This document shows positions 7,004-27,953 of a DNA stretch of 64,000 bases, in pieces. This DNA comes from a phage. The number at the start of each line of letters is the position of its first letter. Position 1 is the stretch's first letter. The stretch lies in the sequence record PZ452611.1; one strand, written 5' to 3'. Both the position numbers and the translations under genes were made by a program. The notes under the pieces were generated by a model. It did not search any database. It saw nothing but the letters and a program-made list of their open reading frames with translations, and was not told where the DNA came from.

Positions 7004-7006
7004 TAC

Positions 7007-11161: not shown

Positions 11162-11359
11162 ATGATTTATCGAATCCGTGTAAGAGAAGATGCACCAGGC
11201 TGTTACTTTGACTGGCGTGGGTGGTGGTTTCTCCACCCGATGGATGGACTCACAGATAGAATGCTGGATGCTGCCCTTTATACAGATACCGACATAGAAT
11301 ATAATCTCTATCTGAAGGACGGTATAGATAACGGTCTATTTGAAGCAATTCCTGTGTAA
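11162..11359 (+). CDS. hypothetical protein
   Basis: RBS AGGAGG; promoter-like TTGACA at 11062. Confidence 0.45.
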   Translation: MIYRIRVREDAPGCYFDWRGWWFLHPMDGLTDRMLDAALYTDTDIEYNLYLKDGIDNGLFEAIPV

Positions 11360-11427
11360 GAGACTGTGATAGCCATGTTTTATGATCTTCCTGTAGCACC
11401 ACCACCTGTTGAACCTGGAGAACTAAG

Positions 11428-11853: not shown

Positions 11854-12301
11854 TACTGTAGAGGGAGATCTAATCTCTCTTTTCAAGAAAGGGTCGGGCC
11901 ACATGATCCACGGTTGTAACTGCTTTCACACAATGGGTGCAGGCATAGCGAAAGATATTGCCCGTGAGTTCCCTCAAGCACTGGCAGCCGACAAAGAGAC
12001 TGCCTATGGTAATCTGGACAAGCTGGGTATGTTTTCTTGTTGGGAGCATTTTGCCAAGAACAGGGTCGTATATGGAATCAACCTGTATACCCAGTTCTAC
12101 CCAGGGCCCAATGCTGAATACTTCTCAATAATGAAAGGTTTTGAGCGAGTCAACGAGGTATTCAAAGGTGTGTCATTGCCGTTCTACATTCCTAAAATTG
12201 GATGCGGTATTGGCGGTCTAAAGTGGGAACATGTAGAAGATGTAATTAATCTTGCAACCACAGATATTGATGTGGTTGTAGTAGAGTACAAAAAGTGTTG
12301 A
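11843..12301 (+). CDS. macro-domain-like protein (ADP-ribose binding/processing family)
   Basis: GDL...HGCNCFHTMGAGIAKDIAREFPQ motif typical of one macro-domain subgroup; probable GTG start 11843 after GAGGAG (start uncertain; longest ORF from 11744). Confidence 0.5.
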   Translation: MIIDTVEGDLISLFKKGSGHMIHGCNCFHTMGAGIAKDIAREFPQALAADKETAYGNLDKLGMFSCWEHFAKNRVVYGINLYTQFYPGPNAEYFSIMKGFERVNEVFKGVSLPFYIPKIGCGIGGLKWEHVEDVINLATTDIDVVVVEYKKC

Positions 12302-12355
12302 CGACCATCTTCTGAGGTGATATAGTTTCCACAACAACTAAGAGAGGAGAGCACT

Positions 12356-12526
12356 GTGGAGACTAAAATCTTAATTCTTGCTGTGGTAGATACAACCGAA
12401 GGAGCTATATTCGAATCTGCAGGAGGGTATTTCTACCTACCCTACGGAAAAAGAACTGCCGAACCGGGTAAAGATTCAATCATCAAAGTGTTCCCGTGTG
12501 CTTTCTGGCTGGAGATTCTGGCATGA
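12356..12526 (+). CDS. hypothetical small protein
   Basis: GTG after AGAGAGGAGAG; 56 aa (below track cutoff); ATGA overlap with next gene; downstream of promoter 12298-12326. Confidence 0.3.
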   Translation: METKILILAVVDTTEGAIFESAGGYFYLPYGKRTAEPGKDSIIKVFPCAFWLEILA

Positions 12527-12735
12527 AAACCTGCATGTGTGTGTCCACGCAATCGGATAATCAAGGGCTGTTTGAAGAATATCCAGTAATAGATGGGCCT
12601 AGCATATCCTTGTGCGACTTCCTGACTGGGACACGTGGTGGCTGTACAAAAGTGATGAATATTCAGGCTATTACTTTGCAAAAACATTTACCGGAGAGTT
12701 GGTATTTGTTCTGGAGGACTGAGGAGGGCTTATGA
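12523..12735 (+). CDS. hypothetical protein
   Basis: ATG overlapping upstream stop; Cys-rich N-terminus. Confidence 0.35.
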   Translation: MKTCMCVSTQSDNQGLFEEYPVIDGPSISLCDFLTGTRGGCTKVMNIQAITLQKHLPESWYLFWRTEEGL

Positions 12736-12926
12736 GAAACAAGAAAGAACTTTACTCTGGCGAGTGGATCAACGATCAACAGATTGGAGAGGTAACCTGC
12801 TTCCGATGTTTTACCAGGTACAATATTAAAACTGCACCAAAAAGTGTTCCAAAGACTGATGGTTATTACATAAAAGAACCTTATTGCCCAAAATGTAAAT
12901 GCCGATTATATTGGAGTAACCTGTAA
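12732..12926 (+). CDS. small zinc-ribbon protein
   Basis: CxxC...CxxC (CFRCF...CPKCKC); ATGA overlap. Confidence 0.4.
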   Translation: MRNKKELYSGEWINDQQIGEVTCFRCFTRYNIKTAPKSVPKTDGYYIKEPYCPKCKCRLYWSNL

Positions 12927-12930
12927 AAGA

Positions 12931-12958
12931 TTGACATCTGAAAACTGCAGTGTATAAT
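12931..12958 (+). promoter_or_regulatory. sigma70-like promoter
   Basis: TTGACA-16-TGTATAAT. Confidence 0.55.
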
Positions 12959-12989
12959 ATATGCATAAACTAACAGAGAGTGATGTATT

Positions 12990-13181
12990 ATGGTAATTTT
13001 TAACCGGGATGGTATCATAGTTAGACAGCACCCGTTCCTTGAATACTATCAAATTGAGCAATGGTGCTACGGGGATTGCAGTCACTCCTATGGGCAAAGT
13101 TGGGGATATCGTACAGTTTTTGAATCCACAGACCTTGACAAAGTAAGACAGAAAGTTTTAGAACTTATTAACAACAAGTGA
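12990..13181 (+). CDS. hypothetical protein
   Basis: downstream of strong promoter 12931-12958. Confidence 0.4.
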   Translation: MVIFNRDGIIVRQHPFLEYYQIEQWCYGDCSHSYGQSWGYRTVFESTDLDKVRQKVLELINNK

Positions 13182-13188
13182 GTATGAT

Positions 13189-13521
13189 ATGGTAACATTA
13201 GAAAGACGTAAAGCTATCGCCGCCACACTGGCAGACATCTTTTGGGAGTGCAATTTAAAAGATACTAGATATTGTGGCGCATCTGTAGATGCATTGTTCC
13301 CACGGCCCACTATTGTTGCAATGGGGAACCTGTTAAACGTAGTGTATGGAGCGTGGGACAAAGAAGGTGGATTTTATATCTGGCAACCTGACTACGGGAC
13401 CTGGAAAGAGGTAAGGGGTGCGGATGACTTTGGGCCTGCAGTTGCTAAGATGGATGGCTGGGAAATCTATGTTGGAAACGACATGAAGCTGAAGGGCGAG
13501 ATTGTTTACTGGTTACCTTAA
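13189..13521 (+). CDS. hypothetical protein
   Basis: RBS GTGAG; 110 aa. Confidence 0.4.
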   Translation: MVTLERRKAIAATLADIFWECNLKDTRYCGASVDALFPRPTIVAMGNLLNVVYGAWDKEGGFYIWQPDYGTWKEVRGADDFGPAVAKMDGWEIYVGNDMKLKGEIVYWLP

Positions 13522-13541
13522 GAAAGTGCAGGAGATAAAGT

Positions 13542-13787
13542 ATGAACAAAGGGTGGACATTTGTAGACGGCGTTAAAAACATGCCTCTAGGAAAGTATAT
13601 TGTAGCCATGGCTGATGAGGATGGCAATGTAGATTTCGGAGCTTGCGAGGTTGTTCTTGCAGGATCTGGTAACTATGTGAGTAAAACCGGGATAATTAAC
13701 GGTCAGTTCTACTTTGATCACAACCCTGTTGTAGCGTATATGGCTATGCCAGAGTTTAAGTTCCCAAAGGAGGATGCAGATGTTTAA
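13542..13787 (+). CDS. hypothetical protein
   Basis: RBS CAGGAGA; 81 aa. Confidence 0.45.
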   Translation: MNKGWTFVDGVKNMPLGKYIVAMADEDGNVDFGACEVVLAGSGNYVSKTGIINGQFYFDHNPVVAYMAMPEFKFPKEDADV

Positions 13788-13977
13788 GCTTAAATCTGCA
13801 TGGAACATCGCTGTGGGTGATGAGATCCGTATCCCCGGTGGGAAGACCATTATGAAGATATCTCGTATTGAGTACGAAGGTGACCGTGTATTCCACATCT
13901 TCGCAGAAGATGGTCGAGAAATTTATATACAGGCAGGTTCTCACATTTATATCCGTAAGAAAGGGGACGACAAATGA
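13780..13977 (+). CDS. hypothetical protein
   Basis: ATG 13780 6 nt after AAGGAGG. Confidence 0.4.
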   Translation: MFKLKSAWNIAVGDEIRIPGGKTIMKISRIEYEGDRVFHIFAEDGREIYIQAGSHIYIRKKGDDK

Positions 13978-14303
13978 CAGAGATCATCATTTCAACTGCA
14001 GGGTATGTGTTCCTGACAATCATTGCACTGACTATTTTGGTGACAGTGTATGGGTTTGTTATCCTTCCTATCCTTGAGACATTTAGTTTGTGTCGGTGTT
14101 GGAGAAAAGCTTACGGTCCACAACCATGGAAGGACTGGCCCCACCTAGTGCGCTTAGCGTTCTCTTATGCTTACGATCACTCCAGCAGTGCATGCATAAC
14201 CGGATACCACGCCCACAACTGGAGCTGGGAAGGGTTGAGGAAATGGAATGTTACAAAGACCATACCTCTGCGCATGTACAAACCTAAAAACAAAGACAGC
14301 TGA
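13974..14303 (+). CDS. hypothetical membrane protein
   Basis: RBS AAAGGGGA; N-terminal hydrophobic helix; last gene before repeat region. Confidence 0.45.
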   Translation: MTEIIISTAGYVFLTIIALTILVTVYGFVILPILETFSLCRCWRKAYGPQPWKDWPHLVRLAFSYAYDHSSSACITGYHAHNWSWEGLRKWNVTKTIPLRMYKPKNKDS

Positions 14304-14610
14304 TACTTGAAAATTCCTGGCATATCAAGTATAAGGGGGATTTCTAAAATGGATTTCCTCCTTTTGATATTTCACCGGGCTGGATATTTTAAAATTCTTA
14401 GAAAATCAGAAAATGGATCGAAAACTAAAATGGATTTTTTCAGCACAGGCGCGGAAAATTGTGCCAATCTATCTAGCCGTTTGCACCATATTCGAGATCA
14501 CCGTTCCAGATTTCCCACACATACACACCTCTCCACCATACCTTTCTCCACTCACTCTTAGTGATTTATGACGGAAAACCCATCGCTATCAGTGAGTTGC
14601 GGTACAATTT

Positions 14611-14795
14611 TTCCAGTACTCGATCTACTTTTCATCTCATGGCTTGGATTTTCTGAAAATTTTTCTCGATAAATTTCTCAGTACTCGATCTGTTTTTCGT
14701 TTTCTGAATCGGATTTTCTGGAAATCGTTCCGGAGCTCGACCTGAAATTTTTGGGGACGAAATCGATTTTTCGTTTTCAGAAATGGATTTTTAAA
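14611..14795. repeat. three imperfect tandem ~60-bp repeats in AT-rich non-coding region
   Basis: cagtactcgatct at 14614 and 14679; ggattttctg recurring; third diverged unit to 14795. Confidence 0.5.
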
Positions 14796-15078
14796 ATTTC
14801 TATATGGGAATATTTTATGGGATACTGTTTTATAGGAAATTGTTACGGAGGGTAATTAGCATGCTAACTAAATTTATGAAATGCGAAAAGTTCTCATTTA
14901 GAATTTTGAATGATAATCATTCTCGTTTGCAGAATAACGGGCACCCCCGGTGATTGTCTCCCGGCCCCTACTGCCCCGGCTTGTTATTATAGTAACACAC
15001 AGGACAAAGAAAGCAAGAAGTTTTTGCATAAATTTTTAGACGATAATGATAATCGTTCTCATTTTATGCAGCGCCCAT

Positions 15079-15114
15079 CCCCGGTGGTTGTCTCCCCCGT
15101 CACCGGTGCCTGCC
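15079..15114. repeat. GC-rich ~36-bp element, copy in forward orientation (partial copy 14944-14962)
   Basis: ccccggtggttgtctcccccgtcaccggtgcctgcc; about 33 of 37 positions match reverse complement of 23739-23786. Confidence 0.55.
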
Positions 15115-15318
15115 GTCCTTTCGATAGGTATATTGTGCCACCTGGCGGGGCCGCTGTCAACACTTTTCAAAAAATTTTTCTAACCTGATGCGCTAACCGC
15201 TGCAACCTGGCGGGGCCAGCCTGGCAGGACCTAACTGACCAGGTAGGAGAGAATGAAGGCTTATAATCTGGTGGGCCTGTGCTATAGGATAGGTAACAAT
15301 TGAAGAGGAGGTACAAAA

Positions 15319-15501
15319 ATGAAAGGTAATATGATCCCCCTGGAAAATGTAGCGATTAATGACGCTGAGGCTATCGCCCTGGTTGAAAAGGCTATGGCGG
15401 GAGCGTTGGAACATAAAGAAGAGTACGAAAAATGGTGGTTAACCTGGCGGGGGCGGCGGCTGGAGAATTCTGCCCAAAAAATAATTTTAACTAATGGTTG
15501 A
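15319..15501 (+). CDS. hypothetical protein
   Basis: perfect RBS GAGGAGG; 60 aa. Confidence 0.45.
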   Translation: MKGNMIPLENVAINDAEAIALVEKAMAGALEHKEEYEKWWLTWRGRRLENSAQKIILTNG

Positions 15502-15580
15502 CAGCTCGGACAGTTCTTGTTATTCTTATCCTCGCAAGGTGAACAACACCACACTAATTAACAGAGAGGATAAAAAAATC

Positions 15581-15778
15581 ATGAACGCCTACGGAATCAA
15601 AGTACGTCGCAGCACTCGCCAGGTGGTCACCGATCAAATGGTTTGCCAGGTGGACGTAACCATCAACAACGGGCAAGGCCTTTATAAATTTCGTCGCGGT
15701 CATAGCTATACCCTGCAACAGCTTAATCGTTGCGCCCTGACAAAAGGTCAGATCAACCACTGGTTTAATAAAAAATAA
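15581..15778 (+). CDS. hypothetical protein
   Basis: ATG after AGAGGATAAAAAAATC; promoter-like TTGACA at 15498. Confidence 0.45.
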   Translation: MNAYGIKVRRSTRQVVTDQMVCQVDVTINNGQGLYKFRRGHSYTLQQLNRCALTKGQINHWFNKK

Positions 15779-15782
15779 GTAT

Positions 15783-15811
15783 TGACATATAGTCCGACAC
15801 CAAATACACTA
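15783..15811 (+). promoter_or_regulatory. sigma70-like promoter
   Basis: TTGACA-17-TACACT. Confidence 0.45.
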
Positions 15812-15842
15812 AAAGCACAAAAGACACTAAGAGGATAAAATC

Positions 15843-16241
15843 ATGAAAACCACTACCTTTAATTTTGATAATGCAGACTTTTCTTTTTCTGATGTCAAGA
15901 ACTGCCGCCGTGATCGTGGATTTTACAAGGCTTATAATCTGGTGGGCCTGGACGATGACAATAATTTGCACGAAGTAGCTGAGATCCGGTATTATGCCGC
16001 CGCCAGTGGGAACACTTACTACTGCGTTTTTTGGATACACGACAACAAGAACAATAAGTACGGCTATACTGGCGGCAAGGCAAGCGGTCACGGTTATGAT
16101 AAAGCTAACGCAGCACTTGAGAGCGCATTAAATGCCATGGGGATCACTGCCGACGGCTGGATCTACGAAGAAGAGTTTTTGTCGGCACTTGCTGACCACC
16201 TAGGCTATAAAAAGCACATTGTAACATGCGCCCACGAATAA
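15843..16241 (+). CDS. hypothetical protein
   Basis: promoter 15783-15811; RBS AAGAGGA; contains 24-nt segment duplicated at 15256-15279. Confidence 0.5.
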   Translation: MKTTTFNFDNADFSFSDVKNCRRDRGFYKAYNLVGLDDDNNLHEVAEIRYYAAASGNTYYCVFWIHDNKNNKYGYTGGKASGHGYDKANAALESALNAMGITADGWIYEEEFLSALADHLGYKKHIVTCAHE

Positions 16242-16323
16242 AAATCATTGACACGCTGCAAAATTTAAGTAAACTAGACACAAAAGGCGGGAATGTTTCC
16301 CGCCAGCACAAAGGAAAAAGATC

Positions 16324-16728
16324 ATGAATAAGAACGTACGCCGCATCATGAACGAGTTGGCAAACGATGAAAAAATTATTGACATGCATTTGATCAACAT
16401 TTGCCGCCGTTGTGTAACATATAACAACCGCGCCGCAAAAGCGCGTGAGATGAACGCAAAAGGCACCTTAAAGCCATTCCAGGTGGTGGTAAAGGCCATT
16501 AAAGATGTAACTAATACGGCAAACCAGGTACAGGGGAACACCAACGAGAGTACCAATATTGATCCGGCTTACATCATGAAACGGATCCGGACCTGCAAGA
16601 ACAAAGAGCAAGTGTATAATGTCATAGACTGGTTGGATTCTATGGGCGATGTGGTTTACAATAGGTTTTCTGCAGCTATCGAGATCCAGCTTGACAGGTT
16701 GGACGGTAAAGTACTAAAAACTTACTAA
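16324..16728 (+). CDS. hypothetical protein
   Basis: TTGACA 16248; 5'-UTR hairpin 16286-16304; RBS AAAGGAAAAAG. Confidence 0.5.
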   Translation: MNKNVRRIMNELANDEKIIDMHLINICRRCVTYNNRAAKAREMNAKGTLKPFQVVVKAIKDVTNTANQVQGNTNESTNIDPAYIMKRIRTCKNKEQVYNVIDWLDSMGDVVYNRFSAAIEIQLDRLDGKVLKTY

Positions 16729-16776
16729 GTTTATTTTTAGATGGCCTTGACTCCAGGGCCATCGATAAAGTAAACT
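16729..16776. repeat. ~48-bp intergenic palindromic element, copy 1
   Basis: tttatttttagatggccttgactccagggccatcgataaagtaaac directly after stop codon. Confidence 0.6.
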
Positions 16777-16808
16777 AATCCCAGTTAAGCGAAAAAGGAG
16801 GCTTGAAG

Positions 16809-16927
16809 ATGAGCACTACACGCCAACACACAAAGGTAACGATTATCGTTTGCATCATTGGTTACATCCTGGCGCAAATGTTGATGGGTAGCGCCAATGA
16901 TTTCGCAAAATTTTTCTTAGACTTTTA
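16809..16927 (+). CDS. small hydrophobic (single-TM) peptide
   Basis: 39-aa ORF after AAAAGGAGG; hydrophobic core VTIIVCIIGYILAQMLMG; below track cutoff. Confidence 0.35.
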
Positions 16928-16928
16928 A

Positions 16929-16956
16929 TTGACAAGCTAACTTAAATCAGTATAAT
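16929..16956 (+). promoter_or_regulatory. sigma70 consensus promoter
   Basis: TTGACA-16-TATAAT. Confidence 0.6.
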
Positions 16957-17008
16957 ACTAAGCACATAAACGGGAAAACTTCCCAGAACACCAAAAGGAG
17001 AAAACATT

Positions 17009-17359
17009 ATGAATACTTCCATCACTATGACCGCCGAAGAAAAAGCCCTGCAGATCGCCGCTCTGAAAAAACAGATTGCAGAACTTGAAGACAAGATCGA
17101 CAATTTTGAAATCGACGAAGACAAATACGACGATAAATATGATGAATGGTTGGACGAGATCTACGGCGAAATTATGATCGGAAACATTTCTTTTCTTCCG
17201 TCGCGTATCCTCAAGGAGCTAGATCCTATCGCTTACCGCTGCGGATTTAGCGACTACATCGACAGCCTGGATATTGAGGACGATGAAGAATACCAGGAAT
17301 TACAGACAGAGCTTGAAGAAGTGAAAGAAGAGCTTGCAGAACTGGAAGAAAACGAGTAA
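17009..17359 (+). CDS. acidic coiled-coil protein
   Basis: consensus promoter 16929-16956; RBS AAAAGGAGAAAACATT; very acidic D/E-rich sequence. Confidence 0.5.
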   Translation: MNTSITMTAEEKALQIAALKKQIAELEDKIDNFEIDEDKYDDKYDEWLDEIYGEIMIGNISFLPSRILKELDPIAYRCGFSDYIDSLDIEDDEEYQELQTELEEVKEELAELEENE

Positions 17360-17408
17360 ATTTATTTTTAGATGGCCTTGACTTCAGGGCCATCAATAAA
17401 GTAAACTT
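17359..17408. repeat. intergenic palindromic element, copy 2
   Basis: aatttatttttagatggccttgacttcagggccatcaataaagtaaac after stop codon. Confidence 0.6.
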
Positions 17409-17448
17409 TAGACTGTTAACACTTAACCAATACAGAGGAGTTAAAACC

Positions 17449-17694
17449 ATGGCCGCACTAATTACCAAATATTATGCCCCTACCAACACCAAAAGCGCCC
17501 GTATCATGGTAAAAGGCTTCGGACGTAAAAAGGTGTACACCTGGGATTATTCCCTAGACATGGAAGACAACTACACCAACGCGATGACAGATTTTATTAA
17601 TGAGCTGAACACGCGGATCTTGACAAATTATAAAATTACCGATATTGCCTATATAGGGGAAGGCGGGATCTGTTTTGTCGGTATCGTCAAATAA
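17449..17694 (+). CDS. hypothetical protein
   Basis: RBS AGAGGAG; 81 aa. Confidence 0.45.
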   Translation: MAALITKYYAPTNTKSARIMVKGFGRKKVYTWDYSLDMEDNYTNAMTDFINELNTRILTNYKITDIAYIGEGGICFVGIVK

Positions 17695-17770
17695 ACTGTT
17701 TTTTCGGTGGTCCTGGTAGCAGGGCCATCTATAAAGATAGTTTATCAGCACAATGAAAGGAGAAAGTAAC

Positions 17771-18124
17771 ATGATCAGCGGGGCAAGTTTTATTATTGGC
17801 GCTATTGCTACGGCTTTAATTGTAAACAAGATCCAATCCAAAAACGAAAAAGAGAGCAACGCGCTTACAGAATACCCATTTTGGGTATTCAACGACAATG
17901 AAGACTACATTATCAAGTACAAGGATGAGAAAGGGGACCAGGTAACACCGAGACCGATCCCAGCTTACAAGATGCAAGAAACATTATACCGCTTAAAGGC
18001 TGGCGGCGCAAAAATCGTAGACTTTTGGGGATATGATTGCAAGGATCAGGAGACTATAAAACGTCGTATCCGGGCGATTCAGGCAAATATTGAGATCAGT
18101 AAAGGGGGCGTTTATGAAAATTAA
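17771..18124 (+). CDS. membrane-anchored hypothetical protein
   Basis: ATG 17771 after AAAGGAGAAAG; N-terminal TM helix. Confidence 0.45.
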   Translation: MISGASFIIGAIATALIVNKIQSKNEKESNALTEYPFWVFNDNEDYIIKYKDEKGDQVTPRPIPAYKMQETLYRLKAGGAKIVDFWGYDCKDQETIKRRIRAIQANIEISKGGVYEN

Positions 18125-18311
18125 TTTCGAAAAAATTGTAAAGCGCCCCCACGATTCCGAAGAGCTGCCGGAACGCCGCCAGCGTAACAATAAACTGAAT
18201 AAACCGAAAAGGTTCGGGAAGATCTGGAGAAATCACTATGATCGCAAATTACCGGGCCTGCTTTTGGAACGTGAACGACAGGCGGAACGATACCGCCACA
18301 AAGACAAATAG
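18114..18311 (+). CDS. small basic protein
   Basis: ATG after AAAGGGGG; Arg/Lys-rich; followed by terminator. Confidence 0.35.
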   Translation: MKINFEKIVKRPHDSEELPERRQRNNKLNKPKRFGKIWRNHYDRKLPGLLLERERQAERYRHKDK

Positions 18312-18319
18312 CAACCAAC

Positions 18320-18348
18320 GCCCCGCCATTGTGCGGGGCTTTTTATTT
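18320..18348 (+). terminator. rho-independent terminator
   Basis: GCCCCGC-cattgt-GCGGGGC followed by TTTTTATTT. Confidence 0.6.
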
Positions 18349-18492
18349 CTATCCCGCCGATAGCGCCCCTGGTTGGCCCTACAAGCGCCATAAAGGCCCC
18401 TACCTATGCAATCCCCTTTCTTAACCTGAAAACAGCGTCTAGGGCCGTTTTATGGCGTTAAAAATATTATTGACAGTAATTCTATTTAAAGC

Positions 18493-18521
18493 TTGACACC
18501 TTGGGATAGTCCGGATATACT
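18493..18521 (+). promoter_or_regulatory. sigma70-like promoter (second TTGACA at 18470)
   Basis: TTGACA-17-TATACT. Confidence 0.5.
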
Positions 18522-18556
18522 AACCACATCAAAGCAAGAAGGAAGGAGTAAACGCC

Positions 18557-18817
18557 ATGCGTAAATTAAAAAATTTTGATAAAGTAGATGTTGTCCTGAA
18601 TAATTTTTACTACTGCAATAATAAAGCCGTTTGGTGGCGTGATAGTTCCACCGATAAAGTTAAAGCGCGCTTTCTCCAAGGGCACTGGCAAGGCCGCCCA
18701 GTGATTAAAATCTCGGGGCAATTGGTAGCGTTTAAAAATTGCCGCCGTGTTGATGACGTTGAAGAGATTCTAAACATTTTACGCCACAATAATTTAAAAA
18801 ATAGTGTTGACAAGTAA
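18557..18817 (+). CDS. hypothetical protein
   Basis: promoter 18493-18521; RBS AAGGAAGGAG. Confidence 0.5.
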   Translation: MRKLKNFDKVDVVLNNFYYCNNKAVWWRDSSTDKVKARFLQGHWQGRPVIKISGQLVAFKNCRRVDDVEEILNILRHNNLKNSVDK

Positions 18818-18834
18818 GTCTCAATAAGTATACT
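18807..18834 (+). promoter_or_regulatory. sigma70-like promoter
   Basis: TTGACA-16-TATACT. Confidence 0.5.
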
Positions 18835-18891
18835 TAAACACACAGGCGGGAAAACTTCCCGCCACTAACAAAGAAAATAGGAGAAAATATC

Positions 18892-19515
18892 ATGACCACC
18901 GTTAACATTACCACAGGTTACAATTTAGCTTTCGACGTGCTGACCGACGAACAAAAAGAAAAAGCCGTTGAAATGGTCCGAGAAAGAGAAGAACACAGCG
19001 GGGATAACTTTTTTGCAGAAAGTGTAATTGAAGACTATAAAGAATATGTCTTTCCAGAGTATGGCCTTGAAGATACCAAGGTACATTGGTCCGGCTTTTG
19101 GTGCCAGGGTGACGGCGCGTCAATCAGTGCGGAAAACGTGGATTTAGAAAAATTCTTGCGTAAAGTAAAGGCCCTGACCAAGTTCCGATCAATTCGTCAC
19201 TTGTTCGGCACAATGCACGATGGCGAGCTATCCGCAAGTGTTGAGCGTGATCCATATAGCCGCTATAGTCACGAAAACACTGTAAGCGGGTACATCGATA
19301 CTACATGGCTAGACCTGACCGCCAAACAAGAAAATAAAGTGGAAGATCTGGAAGAGCTGATCACCGAGACGGTACGGGAGCTATCCCGCAAGGTTTACGT
19401 AGACCTGGAGGAGGCCTATCTAGAACAGTTCACTACCGAAAACCTGATCGGCCTTATTGAGGCCAATGATTGGCGGTTTGATGTGGATGAATATGGAGAG
19501 ATGAGTTTTTCATAA
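18892..19515 (+). CDS. hypothetical protein
   Basis: promoter 18807-18834; 5'-UTR hairpin; RBS; 207 aa acidic. Confidence 0.5.
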   Translation: MTTVNITTGYNLAFDVLTDEQKEKAVEMVREREEHSGDNFFAESVIEDYKEYVFPEYGLEDTKVHWSGFWCQGDGASISAENVDLEKFLRKVKALTKFRSIRHLFGTMHDGELSASVERDPYSRYSHENTVSGYIDTTWLDLTAKQENKVEDLEELITETVRELSRKVYVDLEEAYLEQFTTENLIGLIEANDWRFDVDEYGEMSFS

Positions 19516-19523
19516 ATAAAGTG

Positions 19524-19552
19524 TTGCAATAATCTAAAAACCTGCTATATTA
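19524..19552 (+). promoter_or_regulatory. sigma70-like promoter
   Basis: TTGCAA-16-TATATT. Confidence 0.45.
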
Positions 19553-19604
19553 AAACTCAAGGGGCAAGACGTTTGCCCCCACACAAAACAAAGAGGAAAA
19601 CATC

Positions 19605-19985
19605 ATGAAAAACACTACCAAAGCTATTTACACCGTTATGTTTAACCTGGTTACCTTTCGCGAGGATATGAAAGATCTTCCGCGTGAAACAGTGTGCGAC
19701 CATATCGAAAACTATCGCAAACTAATCAAAGAGTTGCCTTTAAAACGTGATCAGTATGCGGCTAACGCCATGCTTAATGCCATGATCAAAAAGATGATCC
19801 AGTGTGATTTAATTCTAGCCTATGATTATGCGGGTGGTCGTTTTGCAGTATACAATCAGCCCGTGCCCGGTATGGGCACCATCGAAGAATTGCACGCGCT
19901 CAATCTAAAACAAGATGTGTGGGATAGTATGCCCCGCGTGGTGGTGTGGGCAGAAAGCGGGAAGATTTACGGCGATAGTTTTTAA
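19605..19985 (+). CDS. hypothetical protein
   Basis: promoter 19524-19552; hairpin; RBS AAAGAGGAAAACATC. Confidence 0.5.
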   Translation: MKNTTKAIYTVMFNLVTFREDMKDLPRETVCDHIENYRKLIKELPLKRDQYAANAMLNAMIKKMIQCDLILAYDYAGGRFAVYNQPVPGMGTIEELHALNLKQDVWDSMPRVVVWAESGKIYGDSF

Positions 19986-20049
19986 TCAGGTAACAGGCGG
20001 CATATTTGCCGCCTTATTGTTAAACAAAACTGCAAAAGAGGTACATAGA

Positions 20050-20421
20050 ATGGAATTTATTATTTTGGCTGTATTGGTTGCCTTGTTTAACGCCTGGATC
20101 GCTGGCAAGATGGGCAGATCCGCCTTTTTATGGTTTATTATATCTATTTTCCTGGGGGTGGTTGCAACTATTGTATTGGTTATCCTTGCAATTGTTGACA
20201 AGGGGAATAATAGAAAGGGTAAAGTATTTTCAGACCTGTACGACGCTCAAACGTTTGTCAACGCCTATTATAGTGATCTTCCAGTCTCCCTACGCTGCAG
20301 CTTGGCACAACAGGTTTTTGATGAGGCTAAAACCAGAGATCAAGCCCATGAGATATGTTTAACTGAGGCGGATCGCCTATTTGAGAGGAATAGAAAATAT
20401 GTGGGCCAACCGTTTAAATAA
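20050..20421 (+). CDS. hypothetical membrane protein (2 predicted TM helices)
   Basis: ATG after AAAAGAGG; hydrophobic segments. Confidence 0.45.
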   Translation: MEFIILAVLVALFNAWIAGKMGRSAFLWFIISIFLGVVATIVLVILAIVDKGNNRKGKVFSDLYDAQTFVNAYYSDLPVSLRCSLAQQVFDEAKTRDQAHEICLTEADRLFERNRKYVGQPFK

Positions 20422-20531
20422 TGCCACGTTAATTAATCCCTTTAGTGAAGATTTGAAGCCAGCCGCCTGGCGTGACGGATTCAATAACGAACGCTTTATT
20501 TTCAGGCCTGATCTTGAGGAATTTTATAACA

Positions 20532-20657
20532 ATGGATCGAACAACAGCGGAGATAATTTTTCTTGTGGTGTGTGTCGTGATAGGACTCCTGGGGGCCATT
20601 GTAGATCGCGTCACTACTACCAGAAGGAAAGGGGGAGACGATGACAACCAAGGATAA
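20532..20657 (+). CDS. small single-TM peptide
   Basis: 41-aa ORF; competing overlapping frame from 20399 exists. Confidence 0.25.
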   Translation: MDRTTAEIIFLVVCVVIGLLGAIVDRVTTTRRKGGDDDNQG

Positions 20658-20760
20658 GCCATGCACCGATAAGGTGCGCCGCGTTATGGTATGGCTTGAG
20701 ATTATCGCCCTTGAAATATTGCTAGGCGTAGGGATGTACTTTATCGCTGTAAGTAACTAA
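20641..20760 (+). CDS. small single-TM peptide
   Basis: 39-aa ORF after AAAGGGGGAGACG; followed by terminator. Confidence 0.3.
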   Translation: MTTKDKPCTDKVRRVMVWLEIIALEILLGVGMYFIAVSN

Positions 20761-20764
20761 GAAC

Positions 20765-20792
20765 GGCCCCCGATCATGGGGGCCTATCTTTT
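20765..20792. terminator. rho-independent terminator (possibly bidirectional)
   Basis: GGCCCCC-gatcat-GGGGGCC then TATCTTTT; A-run follows. Confidence 0.55.
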
Positions 20793-20816
20793 AAAAAAAA
20801 ATTTTCTTCCGGGGTG

Positions 20817-20845
20817 TTGCAATCCGGTCCGGAATGTGGATAATA
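20817..20845 (+). promoter_or_regulatory. sigma70-like promoter
   Basis: TTGCAA-17-ATAATA. Confidence 0.4.
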
Positions 20846-20900
20846 ACAATCAACGGGGAGCTAATCCCCACCACCACAAAAACCAGAAAGGAGAAACAAA

Positions 20901-21101
20901 ATGAGCAACAATATCCGCGTTATTAACTTCAAAAAAGAAGAAAAAATTGCCGTGCTGATTGACGGTCAAGAAATCTTCAAGGGCGACTATGAAGATCATC
21001 AAACGGCGATTAGTATCACTCGCGTGATTGGTTACCATAATTTCTACCCCCAAGGCGCTGAGGCAGCAGTTAAACGAATCAAAGAGATTGTAGGCCTGTA
21101 A
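20901..21101 (+). CDS. hypothetical protein
   Basis: promoter-like 20817-20845; hairpin; RBS AAAGGAG. Confidence 0.5.
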   Translation: MSNNIRVINFKKEEKIAVLIDGQEIFKGDYEDHQTAISITRVIGYHNFYPQGAEAAVKRIKEIVGL

Positions 21102-21150
21102 AATTTATTTTTAGATGGCCTTGACTTCAGGGCCATCAATAAAGTAAATT
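21100..21150. repeat. intergenic palindromic element, copy 3
   Basis: identical core to copy 2; after stop codon. Confidence 0.6.
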
Positions 21151-21192
21151 TAAACCCTGTTAAAATAATCAGTGCAAAAAGGAGTAATGATC

Positions 21193-21492
21193 ATGTTTAT
21201 ACCCGCCAATAATCTTTATTTCTTTGATGGTCAGATCGTAGACGGTGTGGAAGTGGAGATCACTGGGTGCCCTGGTGGTCAGGCTATGACTTTTCGGAAT
21301 AATGCCTTTGATGATTCTCGTATCGTTATGAGAATGGAAGTTACAAAGCTGGACGACAAGAAAACGCTCATTGACTATTCCGTGAAAGATCATCCAGACT
21401 ACCACATGATCTATGGTGATTTGTGTATTGTTGACCGTGACAAGGTGGGCGGCATTGTGATCGCTATTGTGAACGATGTTTTCTCTGAATAA
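21193..21492 (+). CDS. hypothetical protein
   Basis: ATG 8 nt after AAAAGGAG. Confidence 0.45.
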   Translation: MFIPANNLYFFDGQIVDGVEVEITGCPGGQAMTFRNNAFDDSRIVMRMEVTKLDDKKTLIDYSVKDHPDYHMIYGDLCIVDRDKVGGIVIAIVNDVFSE

Positions 21493-21631
21493 TTCCGGCA
21501 AATGATGCAAAATAAGGCCCCTAGCAGGGCCTGCAGCGATATAATCACATAAAGGCTATGCGGTTGCATGGCCTTTATTATTTTAGCGTTACAGCGTCCC
21601 CAAGGCGCTTAAAAAATTTTTAAAGAAGTAC

Positions 21632-21660
21632 TTGCATCAAGTCCTACAATATGGATAATA
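21632..21660 (+). promoter_or_regulatory. sigma70-like promoter
   Basis: TTGCAT-17-ATAATA. Confidence 0.4.
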
Positions 21661-21716
21661 GGACGTGTCAGGGGGGCGGCCCCCAATCATTAACCGGATA
21701 GATAGGAGTTAAAATC

Positions 21717-22001
21717 ATGGCTATTGTCACCGTTGGCGATGTAGTGGAAATGGAAGCAAAATACTTAAAAGCGGGTATGCATATCCTACGGAATGATCAA
21801 GAATTGTTATTAACGATGGTAGACTATAATCCCGGCCAGGATTATCCAAGCATCGACATACTTTTTGAGTATGTTGATGAAGAATTGAAAGAGGATGAGG
21901 CTTATCAGGGTGAATTCTGCAATTTCTTTTGCCCTGATGAGGTTGTAAAAGTTATCTATCAACCTGGCGTACCTTTCCCGCTGCACGCTATCAATAAATA
22001 A
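21717..22001 (+). CDS. hypothetical protein
   Basis: promoter 21632-21660; hairpin GGGGGCGGCCCCC; RBS ATAGGAG. Confidence 0.5.
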   Translation: MAIVTVGDVVEMEAKYLKAGMHILRNDQELLLTMVDYNPGQDYPSIDILFEYVDEELKEDEAYQGEFCNFFCPDEVVKVIYQPGVPFPLHAINK

Positions 22002-22055
22002 ACCTGGCGGGGCCGAAAAGGCCCCAATTATGAAAATAAAGAGAGGTAAATCATC

Positions 22056-22289
22056 ATGATGGAACAAATTAAACGCGCTGAGGCTATTAATGGCAATGTG
22101 ATCTATTTTGTCAGCAAAAACGAAAAAGGCGTACCATATGCGGCGGTAATAGTACAACCTGACGGCGATTATTGGTTTACTGTATACGGATCTTATTCTT
22201 TCGGGCGTCCGGTTCATGATAGAATTTTGAAAGTAGCGAATCCGACCGGGAAAAATATCACAGCAGAAAAATTTTTTGAAAATAGTTGA
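22056..22289 (+). CDS. hypothetical protein
   Basis: hairpin; RBS AAAGAGAGG. Confidence 0.45.
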   Translation: MMEQIKRAEAINGNVIYFVSKNEKGVPYAAVIVQPDGDYWFTVYGSYSFGRPVHDRILKVANPTGKNITAEKFFENS

Positions 22290-22314
22290 CATGACCATAT
22301 AAGACTGTAATATA
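22286..22314 (+). promoter_or_regulatory. sigma70-like promoter
   Basis: TTGACA-16-TAATAT. Confidence 0.5.
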
Positions 22315-22365
22315 TAAATCAAAGGGGGGCAACAAGCCCCACCAACCACAAAGAGGATAAAAATC

Positions 22366-22545
22366 ATGGCTATTATTGCAAAGACTGAGATCGTAGGCTT
22401 AGATTCTATTCTCCTCGCATATGAGGAAGCTATAGAAATGTATGTGGTTTCCTATGGTGAATATATCCGTGAATATAAATCTATTGATCTGGCTTTTGAA
22501 TGTTATATTCGCCAGGTTAATAAAGCGTACGATGATTATCGTTAA
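22366..22545 (+). CDS. hypothetical protein
   Basis: promoter 22286-22314; hairpin; RBS AAAGAGGA; 59 aa. Confidence 0.4.
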   Translation: MAIIAKTEIVGLDSILLAYEEAIEMYVVSYGEYIREYKSIDLAFECYIRQVNKAYDDYR

Positions 22546-22635
22546 AATAGCTTGACAACAAACAACCATCTAACAAAGCATAATACATAAGGCGGTGGAA
22601 TGGTCCGCCACCTGGAACAAGAAGAGGAAAACAAG

Positions 22636-22740
22636 ATGAAACAGAAATTAATTGATGCGGTGATCCTGGTTATTGCCCTGGGTATTGGCCTGATTGCAAC
22701 CATGTCTAATATGATCTTGTCTTCCAACGGTATCGGGTGA
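22636..22740 (+). CDS. small single-TM peptide
   Basis: 34-aa ORF after hairpin and AAGAAGAGGAAAACAAG. Confidence 0.3.
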   Translation: MKQKLIDAVILVIALGIGLIATMSNMILSSNGIG

Positions 22741-22749
22741 GGTTGGCAA

Positions 22750-22965
22750 ATGATCACTAACAAAACAGGCAAAACAGAATTTTTACGCAACTTACAGATC
22801 GGCAAGCCTGAGATCTGGTATTGCACTAAAACACCACGTGACGAAATGAAAGACTTCACCGCCACGCTGCAACGGGTAAAGATATCCATCACGCAGAAAA
22901 AGGCCTTATTAGTGGTGGAAGGTGAGATCCCCCAAACCGTTGTTATAGTTGAGCGTACAGCATAG
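22750..22965 (+). CDS. hypothetical protein
   Basis: ATG after GAGG; 71 aa. Confidence 0.4.
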   Translation: MITNKTGKTEFLRNLQIGKPEIWYCTKTPRDEMKDFTATLQRVKISITQKKALLVVEGEIPQTVVIVERTA

Positions 22966-23056
22966 TTTAATTTATACCGATACCCGAAAATTAACCAACA
23001 AAGCATAAACAGGCGGTTACCGCCGCCTTAAACGTAGCAGAAAGAGGATAGACACA

Positions 23057-23341
23057 ATGAAAAAGATGATCGCAGTGGTTGCCCTGGTTGTTGGACTTAA
23101 TGCGCCTGTAATGGCTAAAGAGCTGGCAAAAGAGGTTAATCTAACGGATATTCATGCCGTCAATCAAATCGGGGTTACTTATCGCTTATGCCTTGCCGCT
23201 AAAACTTTTAATGACGGTACAACAGAGTACTACGGATTCGAGGGTATCCGGTGCGGTGAGCTTGCTCGCGACCTTAAGGAAGATTCAGACCTGGAGGATC
23301 TGCCCATAACCGTGAACGGGAAAACTTACGTGAACCGTTAA
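23057..23341 (+). CDS. secreted/periplasmic small protein
   Basis: Sec-type signal peptide MKKMIAVVALVVGLNAPVMA; RBS AAAGAGGA. Confidence 0.5.
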   Translation: MKKMIAVVALVVGLNAPVMAKELAKEVNLTDIHAVNQIGVTYRLCLAAKTFNDGTTEYYGFEGIRCGELARDLKEDSDLEDLPITVNGKTYVNR

Positions 23342-23343
23342 CC

Positions 23344-23478
23344 ATGAAAAAGATAATCATCACCTTGGGGATTGTGGTGGCAATATTGGCGCTCTTCCCC
23401 CTTATGGTTAGGTATGTGCTGATCAGTGTTATTCTAGTGGTCAGCGATCTGGTGTTATATATTAACTCATTGTTTTAG
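23344..23478 (+). CDS. small membrane protein
   Basis: 44-aa hydrophobic ORF right after upstream stop. Confidence 0.3.
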   Translation: MKKIIITLGIVVAILALFPLMVRYVLISVILVVSDLVLYINSLF

Positions 23479-23486
23479 GTGCGATA

Positions 23487-23678
23487 ATGACCACTGATGA
23501 AGCTGTAAAAGTGTTGGCGGTATTGAGATATCATAATCAAACAAAGGTTATAAACGATCCTGATTATGTTGACTCAAAGCGTGAAGATGAGACATTGACC
23601 GCAATATGGATTATTCAAGAATTGCTAAAGCGCATGACAGAGAAAAACCGACCGGACTACATAGGCGAAAAAATATAA
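23487..23678 (+). CDS. hypothetical protein
   Basis: 63 aa; followed by terminator-like hairpin. Confidence 0.4.
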   Translation: MTTDEAVKVLAVLRYHNQTKVINDPDYVDSKREDETLTAIWIIQELLKRMTEKNRPDYIGEKI

Positions 23679-23738
23679 TATTTATAAACTACAAAACAGG
23701 GCTTGCAATGGTCCTGTTTTTTGTTATACTTATTCCAC

Positions 23739-23786
23739 GGCAGGCACCTGGCGACGGGGGGAGACAATCACCGGGGGGTGCCTGTC
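23739..23786. repeat. GC-rich element, inverted copy with internal 8-bp stem
   Basis: ggcaggcacctggcgacggggggagacaatcaccggggggtgcctgtc. Confidence 0.55.
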
Positions 23787-23807
23787 ATATAAGAACTATA
23801 AAAACCG

Positions 23808-23836
23808 TTGACATCTGCCAGGGGGTGGGGTAACAT
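23808..23836 (+). promoter_or_regulatory. sigma70-like promoter
   Basis: TTGACA-17-TAACAT. Confidence 0.45.
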
Positions 23837-23890
23837 TTATCTTGAAGGGGCAAAAGTGCCCACACAACAACCAGAAGAGAGGAAAACATT

Positions 23891-24163
23891 ATGTCAAGCT
23901 GGATTAATCAAGAAGTCGAATCACGTTTTAATGCTATTTGGGATCTCATCGAAAAAGAGGACGGAACATCAAGCCCTTACCTCAATAATCTTGAATTCCA
24001 TTTTGTGGAAGCGATGAACGCAGAACATGATCACGAAGGTGGTGCGGACGAGTTCGCTAAAAGGTATGGCTTCAACAATGCCAACGAAATGATCGAGGCG
24101 GTTGTACTCCAGGCTGAGGAAGATTATCAATTAAAAACGCTTGAATTCTGCCGCCGCAAGTAA
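23891..24163 (+). CDS. hypothetical protein
   Basis: promoter 23808-23836; hairpin; RBS GAGAGGAAAACATT. Confidence 0.5.
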   Translation: MSSWINQEVESRFNAIWDLIEKEDGTSSPYLNNLEFHFVEAMNAEHDHEGGADEFAKRYGFNNANEMIEAVVLQAEEDYQLKTLEFCRRK

Positions 24164-24223
24164 TAAGATAATGACACGGGCCAAAAGGCCCACTAATCAG
24201 AACCACACAAAGAGAGAAAGAAA

Positions 24224-24442
24224 ATGACAACCCGTAAAATTAAAGTTGTTTGCATTGAATCTACTGGGGGCGCTTTTGTAGTTGGTCAGGAATATAATGC
24301 GGTTTTAATGGGTACGGATTGGAAGGTTAAAGGCCTTAATGGTTACGAGTACGGCACTACTTGCGGCTTGCGTGGTCGAATCGGATACGTGAGTTTAGAC
24401 AATAAAGAAAAATTTGTTTTCGACACCCTTGTGAGTAAATAG
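24224..24442 (+). CDS. hypothetical protein
   Basis: hairpin GGGCCAAAAGGCCC; RBS. Confidence 0.45.
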   Translation: MTTRKIKVVCIESTGGAFVVGQEYNAVLMGTDWKVKGLNGYEYGTTCGLRGRIGYVSLDNKEKFVFDTLVSK

Positions 24443-24519
24443 CATGAATTGCTAAAGACTGATCTGCGAACTGCTGTATTATCAACTAATCAAAACGAAC
24501 CACATAAAGAGGAAACATC

Positions 24520-25395: not shown

Positions 25396-26347
25396 TCTGT
25401 ATTTCTCCTACCACAAACGGCCCAGCCTGGCAAGTGGAATAATTGACTAGCCAGCAATTACCAACACTGTACAAATATACATATAAAATAACTATTGCAT
25501 AATCTTTCATCTTGTGGTAGCAGGGCCATTTTTACACGTTTTCCTTCCAAAATTGCACGTAATGCAGCTATTGCATAAAATTTAACCTGATGCACATCTT
25601 CAATAGCTTGTCAACAACTAAAAATCTTTATAAGTCATACACTTACATAACCACAAAAGCGTGTTCTACGTGAAAAATCGAGTATAACTATAGCCGCCAG
25701 ATCTCAGAATTTACGTACGCTCACCATTCTATAGTCTGCTAAGTATTTATTCCAACCATAGAATAACAGAATAGTCAATACCTGCATAAAATAATTATTC
25801 GTGTAAACTGCATAACATAAATCAGCCGGGGTGTCAACATTTTTCGTAAACGGCTCGAAATTATCACTGTGAGCTATCATAAACAGAGAAATCTTTAGTC
25901 GTCTAATGTTTACTGTACGTTACTATACTAACTGGAATCATTAGATGACTAATAAAAAGATAAGAAATCATTAACAATGCAATTGTTTTATTCATAACAA
26001 TAAGGCAACTATGCAAACGAATGGCATGGCGCGACGGAGTCGCGACATAATATAAAAGCAGTAACCATCACCCCCGTGATAGTTTGTCTGCAAACTATTA
26101 ATCAGATCATAGTTGCCTTGTATTTAGTTAATCATGACATAAACTCAGGCATAGCCTTCGTCTCGAGGATGTTAACAAGCAAGGCAACTATAGATCTTCT
26201 AATAGTTGCCCTGCTTTTATATTATGTCATAGAAACACCCGAAGGGGTGACCAAAGGTCACCTGGCATAGCCAGTGAAATATTGTAAACAAGTTAATTAT
26301 TATCATGCAAACGAATGGCATGGCTTATCATCTCTGTGTAAATAGTT

Positions 26348-26511
26348 TGTTTGTAAACAGTTTATACGTGAACAGTTAGCTGTGTAAACTATCAGGCATG
26401 TAAGCTATTGAGCATGTAAACAGTAAAGGTCGTGAACAGTAAGCGAGCGAATAGTAATGGCGTGAACAATGACAGCGTAAACAGTCAGGCATGTCAATTA
26501 TGTTCAGTGTG
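26348..26511. repeat. tandem array of 11 units, 15-16 bp period, consensus n6-GTRAACAGT (iteron-like)
   Basis: 9-mers start at 26348, 26363, 26378, 26394, 26410, 26426, 26442, 26457, 26472, 26487, 26503. Confidence 0.7.
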
Positions 26512-27953
26512 TCACCATTATGTCATATTGTGTCAGACAAGTTTTTCTCCTCTTTGTCAAGTGCTGCATGAAAAATTTACAATCTGGTATGGTAGCATTT
26601 TTGCGGCCCTGTTTACATTCAGTACTGTATGTATAAGCCTTGTTGTGTGGGCGCTTAGACGTCTAGACGGTTGGAAGTCTGCAGGTCAATATCTAATCTA
26701 TTGGTTGCTAACTATATCCCACACAAATAGTAAGAAATGCAATTGTTATATGCGTAAACTGTAACTCATGTTATCAATCCCTGTATGGATCGCCAGTGGT
26801 GCGCATAATAGGTATTATGTTAAATTGCCAGTAATGATAACTATTCTCACAGTGATAGGTATTCTCATTCAACCCCACAAGATAGGTTGCAAATGTTGTG
26901 CCACTGTGTGAACGGCCTCGCCTATTAATTTGCCTCACTGCCTCGATATTTGAGAATTATTATAAGAATGAGAAGTATTCCCATTTCGTCCGCCTGGCAG
27001 CACTCCTGTAGGTCAGGTCAAAATCGGGAGAGAACTGGACCTGTTCAGATATTTCTGGCTGGCTCTTCAGGTCTGTGTGGGAAAAGCCGACCCCTCCGGC
27101 GGCGGGGAGGGGGTCAATTAAAAAATTTACGGGGCATATGAAGCGCTCTTCAGGTAAGGCATGTATTATGGGATGAAACCCTCTTCAGGAAATGATATTT
27201 GTGGGTGTGATATTTGCTGGAAAGCTAGATATGACTGGACTCCTGGCGGGGCAGGGGTAGTACAGACAGGGGAAATATGGGGGATGTAGTTGGGTAAATT
27301 GATCAGGCAGGTAGAGTATGGAATATGTTACGAGTATGTTAAATATGGAGGGTGAATATCTGCAGGATTTGTGTGTAAAATCAAAGACTTAAGTGGTGTT
27401 GTGGTATTTTCTATAAATAATTCAAGTTTAATAGGTGATATTTGTCCCTATCCACTTTGTGTGGTAAACAGATTCAGATGAGATTGGTTTACGAGTGTAT
27501 ACATAATATACAAATTAAAGATACAAGAAACCCCCCTCCCCCTTCGGCTACCATTCACCTTTTCCTCTGACTGGTACTTAAACACTTATTCAGACTCTTC
27601 AGGTTATCACCCATATATCATATGGCAGTGACTGGTGTCCTCCGGCCCCTCTTTCGTCACCCGTCCGCTTCGCCATGCTAATGCCATAGCCAATGGTTCG
27701 GTTGTTCACCCTGTTCACTCAGGTGTATCTCCATACCCCTTCAAACCGAAGAGAACAGAAAACCCGAATTACTCGGTAAAAGAAAAGAGAAGAACTTAAT
27801 TTTATCAGGATAAGCAAGAATGTCAAGGCATGACTGCTCACTAAACAAGCAAACAGTCATGTGTGGGAGGTAAGTGATTGTGGTGGTAGGAAATTTAGTT
27901 GAAAGATGTGTTATAGGTGCTCCCAGCACTTTAGCCGGGTAGCTAATTGTGTG

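Follow-up and report, generated by a model that had tools for sequence, protein, structure and literature searches.

In phages lambda and HK022, the nutL/nutR and putL/putR sites are short conserved elements that lie in the leaders of early promoters, are inverted along with these opposed promoters and bracket a central segment. Short inverted repeats around a segment of several kilobases are also found in the Hin, Gin and Cin systems, and in the T4-type phages the early-promoter stem-loops (PeSLs) combine a terminator hairpin with an early sigma-70 promoter between small early genes, the flanking genes varying among relatives (Comeau et al. 2014, PMC4122927). The subject of this report is a GC-rich element that shares something with each of these systems and stands in inverted orientation at 15079-15114 and 23739-23786 of phage record PZ452611.1, of which 64,000 nucleotides (nt) were analysed; this whole stretch is called the window. 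Megablast identified the window as the reverse complement of coliphage rV5 (DQ832317/NC_011041) at 99.9% identity, with window position 14000 corresponding to position 117970 of that record. An earlier note on this DNA had tentatively likened the copies to recombinase targets, cassette boundaries or paired operator sites.

The explanation that we favour overall, with a probability of roughly 0.5, is that the window holds three paralogous promoter-proximal leader or operator cassettes, two at the left (A1 and A2) and one at the right (B). Each would begin with an early promoter for host sigma-70, behind which come a GC-rich leader, transcribed first and containing GGGAGACAAnCACCGGnnnTGCCCGCTATTC, and, in the A units, Fur-box-like palindromes. 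It is very probable that the element belongs to a promoter-proximal cassette and is inverted because the promoters diverge, as with lambda nutL and nutR; that the mechanism operates specifically at the RNA level is a tentative proposal. Phages of the rV5 type (Vequintavirinae and Stephanstirmvirinae) find wide use as candidates for therapy and biocontrol, and what looked like an odd repeat becomes a testable regulatory architecture. It consists of three unannotated promoters, a 32-nt block shared by the subfamilies, Fur boxes close to the consensus in a strictly lytic phage and, in sister genera, a candidate structured RNA. Should the Fur boxes prove functional, the early transcription of a lytic phage would be tied to the iron status of its host.

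Three copies, each behind a predicted promoter

The inverted match reported in the earlier note holds: between 15079-15114 and the reverse complement of 23739-23786, 34 of 38 alignment columns match, 2 are mismatches and 2 are one-base gaps, and with the alignment widened to 15061-15116 there are 48 matches in 58 columns. The partial direct copy that had been noticed further left was likewise found, 14944-14962 being a perfect 19-nt reverse complement of 23759-23777, as was the duplicated unit in which it lies (14909-14962 versus 15045-15096, about 41 of 54 columns aligned). Within the 64 kb there are exactly three occurrences of the 16-nt core CCGGTGRTTGTCTCCC (14947 and 15081 on the plus strand, 23759 on the minus strand), with shuffled sequences giving a mean of 0.54 hits even when up to three mismatches were allowed, and a BLAST search with the 56-nt B element returned three places in the rV5 record that match the three copies in the window. 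The units are made up as follows.

14931..14982, minus strand: A1 leader, the partial direct copy of the earlier note; conserved block 14965-14931 (nhmmer E = 2.7e-8)
14989..15016, minus strand: predicted promoter P_A1; −35 TTGCTT (15016-15011), 16-nt spacer, extended −10 TGtTACTAT (−10 at 14994-14989), read from the sequence
15066..15125, minus strand: A2 leader, the main copy of the earlier note (15079-15114), a B-type paralogue
15132..15181, minus strand: predicted promoter P_A2; A/T-rich UP-like tract, −35 TTGACA (15160-15155), 17-nt spacer, TG-CACAAT (−10 to 15132); promoter scan 10/12, TG present
23693..23720, plus strand (hairpin on both strands): terminator hairpin, an 11-pair stem and then a T run, kept in all genera; its loop holds the −35 of P_B
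23703..23730, plus strand: predicted promoter P_B; −35 TTGCAA, 16-nt spacer, extended −10 TGtTATACT; promoter scan 9/12, TG present
23737..23791, plus strand: B leader, the GC-rich element, beginning at the predicted transcription start; conserved block 23755-23791 (nhmmer match)

As in the nut and put systems, the element thus sits in the leader of a predicted early promoter and in a fixed orientation, with P_A2 and P_A1 predicted to fire leftward and P_B rightward. The −35 and −10 hexamers and their spacing are kept in every A1, A2 and B unit. The 24 other A1 units all have a counterpart of P_A1 (TTGCxx-17-TATWWT), the P_B elements TTGnnn and TGnTATnCT are kept in seven genera, and the P_A2 tract is 93% identical over 27 nt to a plus-strand early promoter at 22265-22291. 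The distance from the promoter is equally constant, the block beginning 23-28 nt past the −10 in the A1 units and 27-28 nt past it in all B units. The looser readings of the earlier note, paired regulatory sites or cassette boundaries, therefore pointed in the right direction, since every copy lies in a promoter-proximal module and B is also a joint of terminator and promoter.

The published description of rV5 lists 33 promoters and 20 terminators (PMC3606486), and P_A1, P_A2 and P_B are all unannotated in GenBank. In the orientation of the window, every gene annotated between about 12 and 25.4 kb (ORF212 to ORF164, where ORF stands for open reading frame) is small, plus-strand, "hypothetical" and early, and several annotated sigma-70 promoters lie among these genes. 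The copies flank a stretch of 8.7 kb; they do not enclose a discrete island, as the small genes run on at both sides.

Other identities were considered for parts of the units and rejected. A sigma-54 promoter in "TGGCAC...GC" would have the wrong spacing (judged by eye), and for a T4 MotA box at TTGCTTTC an ordinary −35 fits the spacing better. ORF198 (14910-15188 in GenBank, plus strand, 92 amino acids) extends over both A leaders and the Fur boxes in a frame that is not kept in relatives, and is probably not a gene. Protein coding by the block itself was dismissed as well, since the conserved bases of the C-rich strand are read in different open frames from genus to genus and these frames are broken in phi92, A73 and ChuuTotoro; nor was a leaderless mini-ORF from the A1 transcription start conserved.

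Conservation among the rV5-like phages

Thirteen rV5-like genomes from at least seven genera, oriented by gene direction, were searched with nhmmer and a hidden Markov model (HMM) of the conserved block, which is about 32 nt long and has GGGAGACAAnCACCGGnnnTGCCCGCTATTC as its invariant part. All 13 contain one minus-strand A1 at the left, and 11 contain a plus-strand B at 8-11 kb to its right; the genomes with both span Vequintavirus, Seunavirus, Certrevirus, Mydovirus and the Stephanstirmvirinae. In phi92 and ChuuTotoro the HMM of the block found A1 and no B, and its only further finds in the 13 genomes were the A2 copies of Vequintavirus. The tandem of A2 followed by A1 stands in the same orientation in 14 of 14 metagenome contigs, and a scan of IMG/VR gave only three loci.

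At the nucleotide level, the 56-nt right-hand element has matches in 129 phage records, and a 38-nt core of B recurs in Certrevirus, Justusliebigvirus and one "Pseudomonas" phage, always right behind a terminator hairpin. The left-hand region, comprising A1 and the stretch with the Fur boxes, is 81-89% identical over 65-88 nt in phages of Pectobacterium, Cronobacter, Klebsiella, Salmonella, Enterobacter and Serratia, and between rV5 and the Stephanstirmvirinae the B cassette is the only stretch that can still be aligned (87% over 85 nt). No match was found in 5,426 E. coli genomes that would point to a host origin, Rfam returned nothing near either locus at the gathering score or beyond noise at E ≤ 10, and literature searches found neither a description of the elements nor a transcriptome of rV5-like phages.

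The inverted arrangement with its perfect 19-nt core is what one would look for in targets of a site-specific recombinase that inverts or excises the 8.7-kb segment, as the earlier note had suggested. The comparison with relatives that it had called for showed that the pair is conserved well beyond rV5, yet in all 13 genomes the segment is oriented in one and the same way with respect to its flanks; in 69 Vequintavirus records, at least 80% of 14000-24500 is covered in one co-linear place. A Pfam scan of the 20 ORFs of at least 185 amino acids in the window (shorter ones lay outside the scan) detected no resolvase or integrase domain, in agreement with the remark that no recombinase is recognisable there, and the ORFs within the segment are small hypotheticals. 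The likeness to the Hin, Gin and Cin segments ends with the short inverted repeats, as there is no invertase gene among the ORFs scanned, no orientation polymorphism and no hix- or gix-like sequence. The A1 and B copies have moreover diverged from one another within several genomes and genera, and each copy is accounted for by a promoter of its own, which leaves the recombinase reading scarcely credible. The A1 of phage F4M1E carries a 4-nt patch that is identical to its own B copy, and this suggests occasional gene conversion between A1 and B.

Leader RNA or DNA site

In the favoured explanation, the block would act in cis on the transcript, or on the elongation complex just past the promoter. 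The 5′ end of the leader RNA would pair with the CCCGCUAU arm and display the GAGACAAnCACC motif, and the leader would in this way set the stability of the transcript or its elongation and termination behaviour. A Fur or Fur-like protein bound just downstream would then gate how far the transcript runs. Directly observed are the copies, the fact that they are conserved across genera, the constant place and orientation that they have with respect to conserved −35 and −10 hexamers, and the matches to the Fur box. Together the data would fit a transcribed leader that carries a sequence-specific motif.

Some of the leaders indeed fold well. The B leader of the window has a minimum free energy (MFE) of −25.7 kcal/mol (z = −3.7), and strong sense-strand hairpins were seen in two clades only, in the B leaders of Vequintavirus (z = −3.7 to −4.4) and the A1 leaders of Certrevirus (z = −3.1). 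In A1, a 6-bp 5′-terminal helix (P1) that joins the first transcribed bases with CGYYAU is 93% paired, versus 24-60% when one arm is slid along the other, and variants such as rV5, JEP1 and S127 retain pairing in shifted registers, with wobble pairs that favour the sense strand. Many units form a stem from their first transcribed bases and leave 0-2 nucleotides unpaired at the 5′ end, as do 5′-terminal stabiliser stem-loops such as that in the ompA 5′ untranslated region, although an invariant 32-nt sequence would be needless there and roughly half of the units here have an unremarkable folding energy.

Several observations weigh against the favoured explanation, above all in its RNA form. The MFE z-score averages only −0.8 over 20 distinct units, the sense strand doing no better than the antisense strand; in an arm-swap test, cognate 5′ and 3′ arms paired no better than non-cognate ones (p = 0.45); and helix P1 of A1 shows no covariation beyond that of shuffled partners. 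RNAalifold gave almost no consensus fold for A1 and B across genera. The strong conservation of the primary sequence would fit a protein-binding DNA site equally well, and P_A1, P_A2 and P_B are themselves predictions. The predicted leftward transcripts of A1 and A2 meet no gene, all genes to the left being on the plus strand, and B is missing in phi92 and ChuuTotoro and is therefore dispensable. The two resemblances to known antitermination and elongation signals are weak: the tail CGCTATTC agrees at 6 of 8 positions with the lambda boxA, CGCTCTTA, and GCCGGTAGYTCG, from the A2 element described below, resembles the ops site of RfaH, GGCGGTAGCGTG, and is a lead only. Measured against the nut and put systems, the locus has no N-like protein, leftward units without genes, unrelated sequences and no significant hairpin covariation across genera.

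The same data can be read in terms of DNA, with the 32-bp block being a double-stranded site at +20 to +55 for a conserved host or phage protein that hinders promoter escape or elongation, possibly together with Fur. Such an operator would explain why the primary sequence is conserved with neither significant covariation nor a consistent folding energy, why the spacing from the −10 is fixed and why arrays of Fur boxes adjoin. The block is, however, non-palindromic and long for a single site, it always faces the same way with respect to the promoter, no candidate binding protein was identified, and some clades have strong sense-strand hairpins with G-U pairs that favour the RNA sense. On balance a purely DNA-level operator seems unlikely, if still worth keeping in mind beside the favoured cassette, which allows for a leader as well as an operator.

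Outside Vequintavirus, the A2 position is occupied by a nearly invariant element of about 100 nt with three helices. It was followed in L008 and L011, our handles for a Phapecoctavirus and a Certrevirus genome.

L011 6540-6660 and L008 12150-12270, minus strand: the ~100-nt A2 element, aligned with 19 further sequences

In these sequences 98.8% of the helix positions are paired, with one pair being AU in 12 sequences and GC in 9 and one G-U pair being invariant. The element contains GCCGGTAGYTCG, with the GCCGGTAG motif, and has no match in Rfam (gathering scans of L008-L012; a scan of L011 at E ≤ 10). In rV5 its place is taken by the B-type paralogue that was the main copy of the earlier note. 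A bolder and rather unlikely proposal is that rV5 A1, A2 and B, and elsewhere the ops-like A2 element, form an undescribed family of promoter-proximal RNAs that reprogrammes the host RNA polymerase or primes replication, and that is either iron-responsive through the Fur boxes or titrates Fur so as to feed an iron-dependent ribonucleotide reductase.

In several genera a single small gene stands on the opposite strand just upstream of P_A2 (L008 12314-12580, L013 4367-4633, L009 9461-9652, L014 8532-8714 and L016 14028-14237). As a conserved leftward gene beside A it was rejected: these genes fall into four or more unrelated families, and neither rV5 nor Certrevirus gave a detectable homologue. 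The motif AACCTGGCGGGGCC is found at 15139-15155, 15204-15220, 15441-15457 and 22001-22017; one copy forms the spacer of P_A2, likewise in phage A73, and the others form small GC hairpins.

Fur-box-like palindromes

Next to each A leader lies a palindrome that resembles the binding site of the host iron regulator Fur, whose consensus is GATAATGATAATCATTATC.

14906..14924, no strand assigned: Fur-box-like palindrome 1, TTGAATGATAATCATTCTC, 15/19 to GATAATGATAATCATTATC; directly downstream of the A1 leader
15042..15060, no strand assigned: Fur-box-like palindrome 2, GATAATGATAATCGTTCTC, 17/19 to the consensus; between the A2 leader and P_A1

Four instances of the 7-1-7 Fur motif were counted in the window, where 0.15 would be expected. 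In other genera, three to six tandem Fur-like boxes stand behind A1, and several genera have them behind B as well. As these boxes stay constant across genera whose phage proteins have diverged widely, the pattern argues for a conserved host factor over a phage-specific protein, and the cassettes are probably under the control of Fur. They share with Fur-repressed promoters such as that of iucA the 15-17 matches out of 19, the tandem arrays and, in one case, a box between −35-like and −10-like hexamers. They differ from them in that the phage is strictly lytic, that no iron-uptake gene is nearby, that the boxes stand downstream of the better-supported leftward promoters and that they are predicted Fur sites only. 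Literature searches found no publication that describes Fur-like boxes in these phages.

The box between hexamers raises a further explanation for the paired elements, namely that a rightward promoter within it (TTGAAT-18-CAGAAT, 14907-14936) makes an RNA complementary to the A1 and A2 leaders and, over 19 nt, to the B leader, so that the two ends of the segment would be tied to the iron status. The hexamers stand on either side of the box, an arrangement known from classical Fur-repressed promoters, and most genera of the Vequintavirinae have them; A1 and B of rV5 are perfect 19-nt complements. Yet this promoter is weak (8/12, under the threshold of the scan) and poorly kept in the Stephanstirmvirinae and at B, and in several genomes the core of A1 is not the same as that of B, all of which makes an antisense RNA acting in trans very improbable.

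The window also encodes NrdD and the class Ia ribonucleotide reductase NrdA/NrdB (44189-50034, minus strand). Iron-dependent NrdB might offer a rationale for the arrays of Fur boxes, which is speculation.

Leftward transcripts and replication

The transcripts predicted from P_A2 and P_A1 run through the Fur boxes and then into a set of direct repeats.

14606..14791, plus strand: three direct repeats of 65-74 nt, CAGTACTCGATCT ... GAAAATTTTTC, iteron-like, in the path of the leftward A1/A2 transcripts

Since these transcripts carry no gene and enter first the boxes and then the repeats, a role in replication is a serious rival to the favoured cassettes, albeit one that we consider quite unlikely. 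It would have P_A2 and P_A1 transcribe into the iteron-like, AT-rich repeats (14606-14924), where a G-rich R-loop RNA would activate replication or serve as its primer, in the manner of T4 oriF, ColE1 RNA II or the lambda origin, with the palindromes being initiator or Fur sites. The three repeats contain CTCGATC and are kept in several genera, they lie in a gap of about 800 nt that holds no credible gene, ORF198 being apparently spurious, leftward genes are absent, the leaders are G-rich, and the origin of rV5 was not located in its published description (PMC3606486). On the other hand, an origin would leave B unexplained, as B precedes ordinary genes; the G runs are not kept in every unit, and at the repeats the density of GATC is not above the local background. 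The GC content there is 0.37, versus 0.42 locally. The published shifts in nucleotide skew lie elsewhere (record 104425-105475, or about 26.5-27.5 kb of the window; PMC3606486), and an origin could be placed at least as well in the larger non-coding region with GTRAACAG repeats (25.5-27.4 kb).

This latter region (about 25500-27400) is free of genes, contains at least eight GTRAACAG repeats (26330-26490) and more Fur-like boxes (26835, 26951), and coincides with the published change in the skew of rV5, which makes it a candidate origin or termination zone. The repeats at 14606-14791 have a GGTACTCGATCG-like core and AAAAATTTTT tracts, and their arrangement to the left of Fur boxes is also seen in four relatives (L009, L010, L011 and L016). 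A boundary at fixed genome ends, or one of first-step transfer as in T5, was rejected on the ground that rV5, PVP-SE1 and PhiTE are circularly permuted (PMC3606486, PMC3475682), and no link was found between the elements and the pseudo-ToxI locus of PhiTE.

The B unit as a possible joint between small early genes

B alone among the three units is a terminator stem-loop fused to an early sigma-70 promoter, and what follows it is another early promoter.

23808..23836, plus strand: promoter P168, early and next after B, TTGACA-17-TAACAT; drives ORF167

From genus to genus, the place downstream of B is taken by genes of at least three unrelated families. One such gene is shared with 82% protein identity between L008 22071-22439 and L011 14597-14974 (Phapecoctavirus versus Certrevirus). 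This far exceeds the usual level between subfamilies and suggests a recent exchange along with the cassette.

Seen from B, the cassettes could be recombination joints and nothing else, that is, patches of homology through which small early genes are shuffled as with the T4-type PeSLs, the GC block having no regulatory role. This would account for the union of terminator and promoter in B, for flanking genes that vary by genus while the cassette and one neighbouring gene (that with 82% identity across subfamilies) are common, and for the patch in the A1 of F4M1E that matches its B copy and suggests gene conversion. Patches of homology, however, require neither a fixed position after the −10 nor an invariant 32-nt block across subfamilies, and there are two or three copies per genome, versus many for other promoter stem-loops, so that joints alone are improbable. 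The T4-type PeSLs also belong to another phage group, and a conserved GC-rich leader past the promoter lies outside their definition. A PeSL-like role as an exchange joint on top of a regulatory one is nonetheless possible for B, since the genes next to it differ between genera.

Further stem-loops of this kind are present between the small early genes. A family of 51-nt repeats (16727-16777, 17358-17408, 17693-17743 and 21101-21151) forms a hairpin GATGGCC...GGCCATC with TTGACT in the loop, and by these features its members are putative PeSL-like promoter stem-loops.

The B cassette (about 220 nt) is 95-98% identical between L002 (OR584014, "Pseudomonas phage PsgM04F"), a phage recorded on Pseudomonas, and Justusliebigviruses of E. 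coli such as L004 (phage PD211). Many records named "Campylobacter phage" are Vequintavirus genomes, and the host labels of these and of PsgM04F look doubtful.

Elsewhere in the window, a group I intron (Rfam RF00028, 64.7 bits) was found at 4902-5137 on the plus strand. It starts where the ORF of a family-A DNA polymerase (2488-4917) ends, and the polymerase gene therefore appears to be split by the intron.

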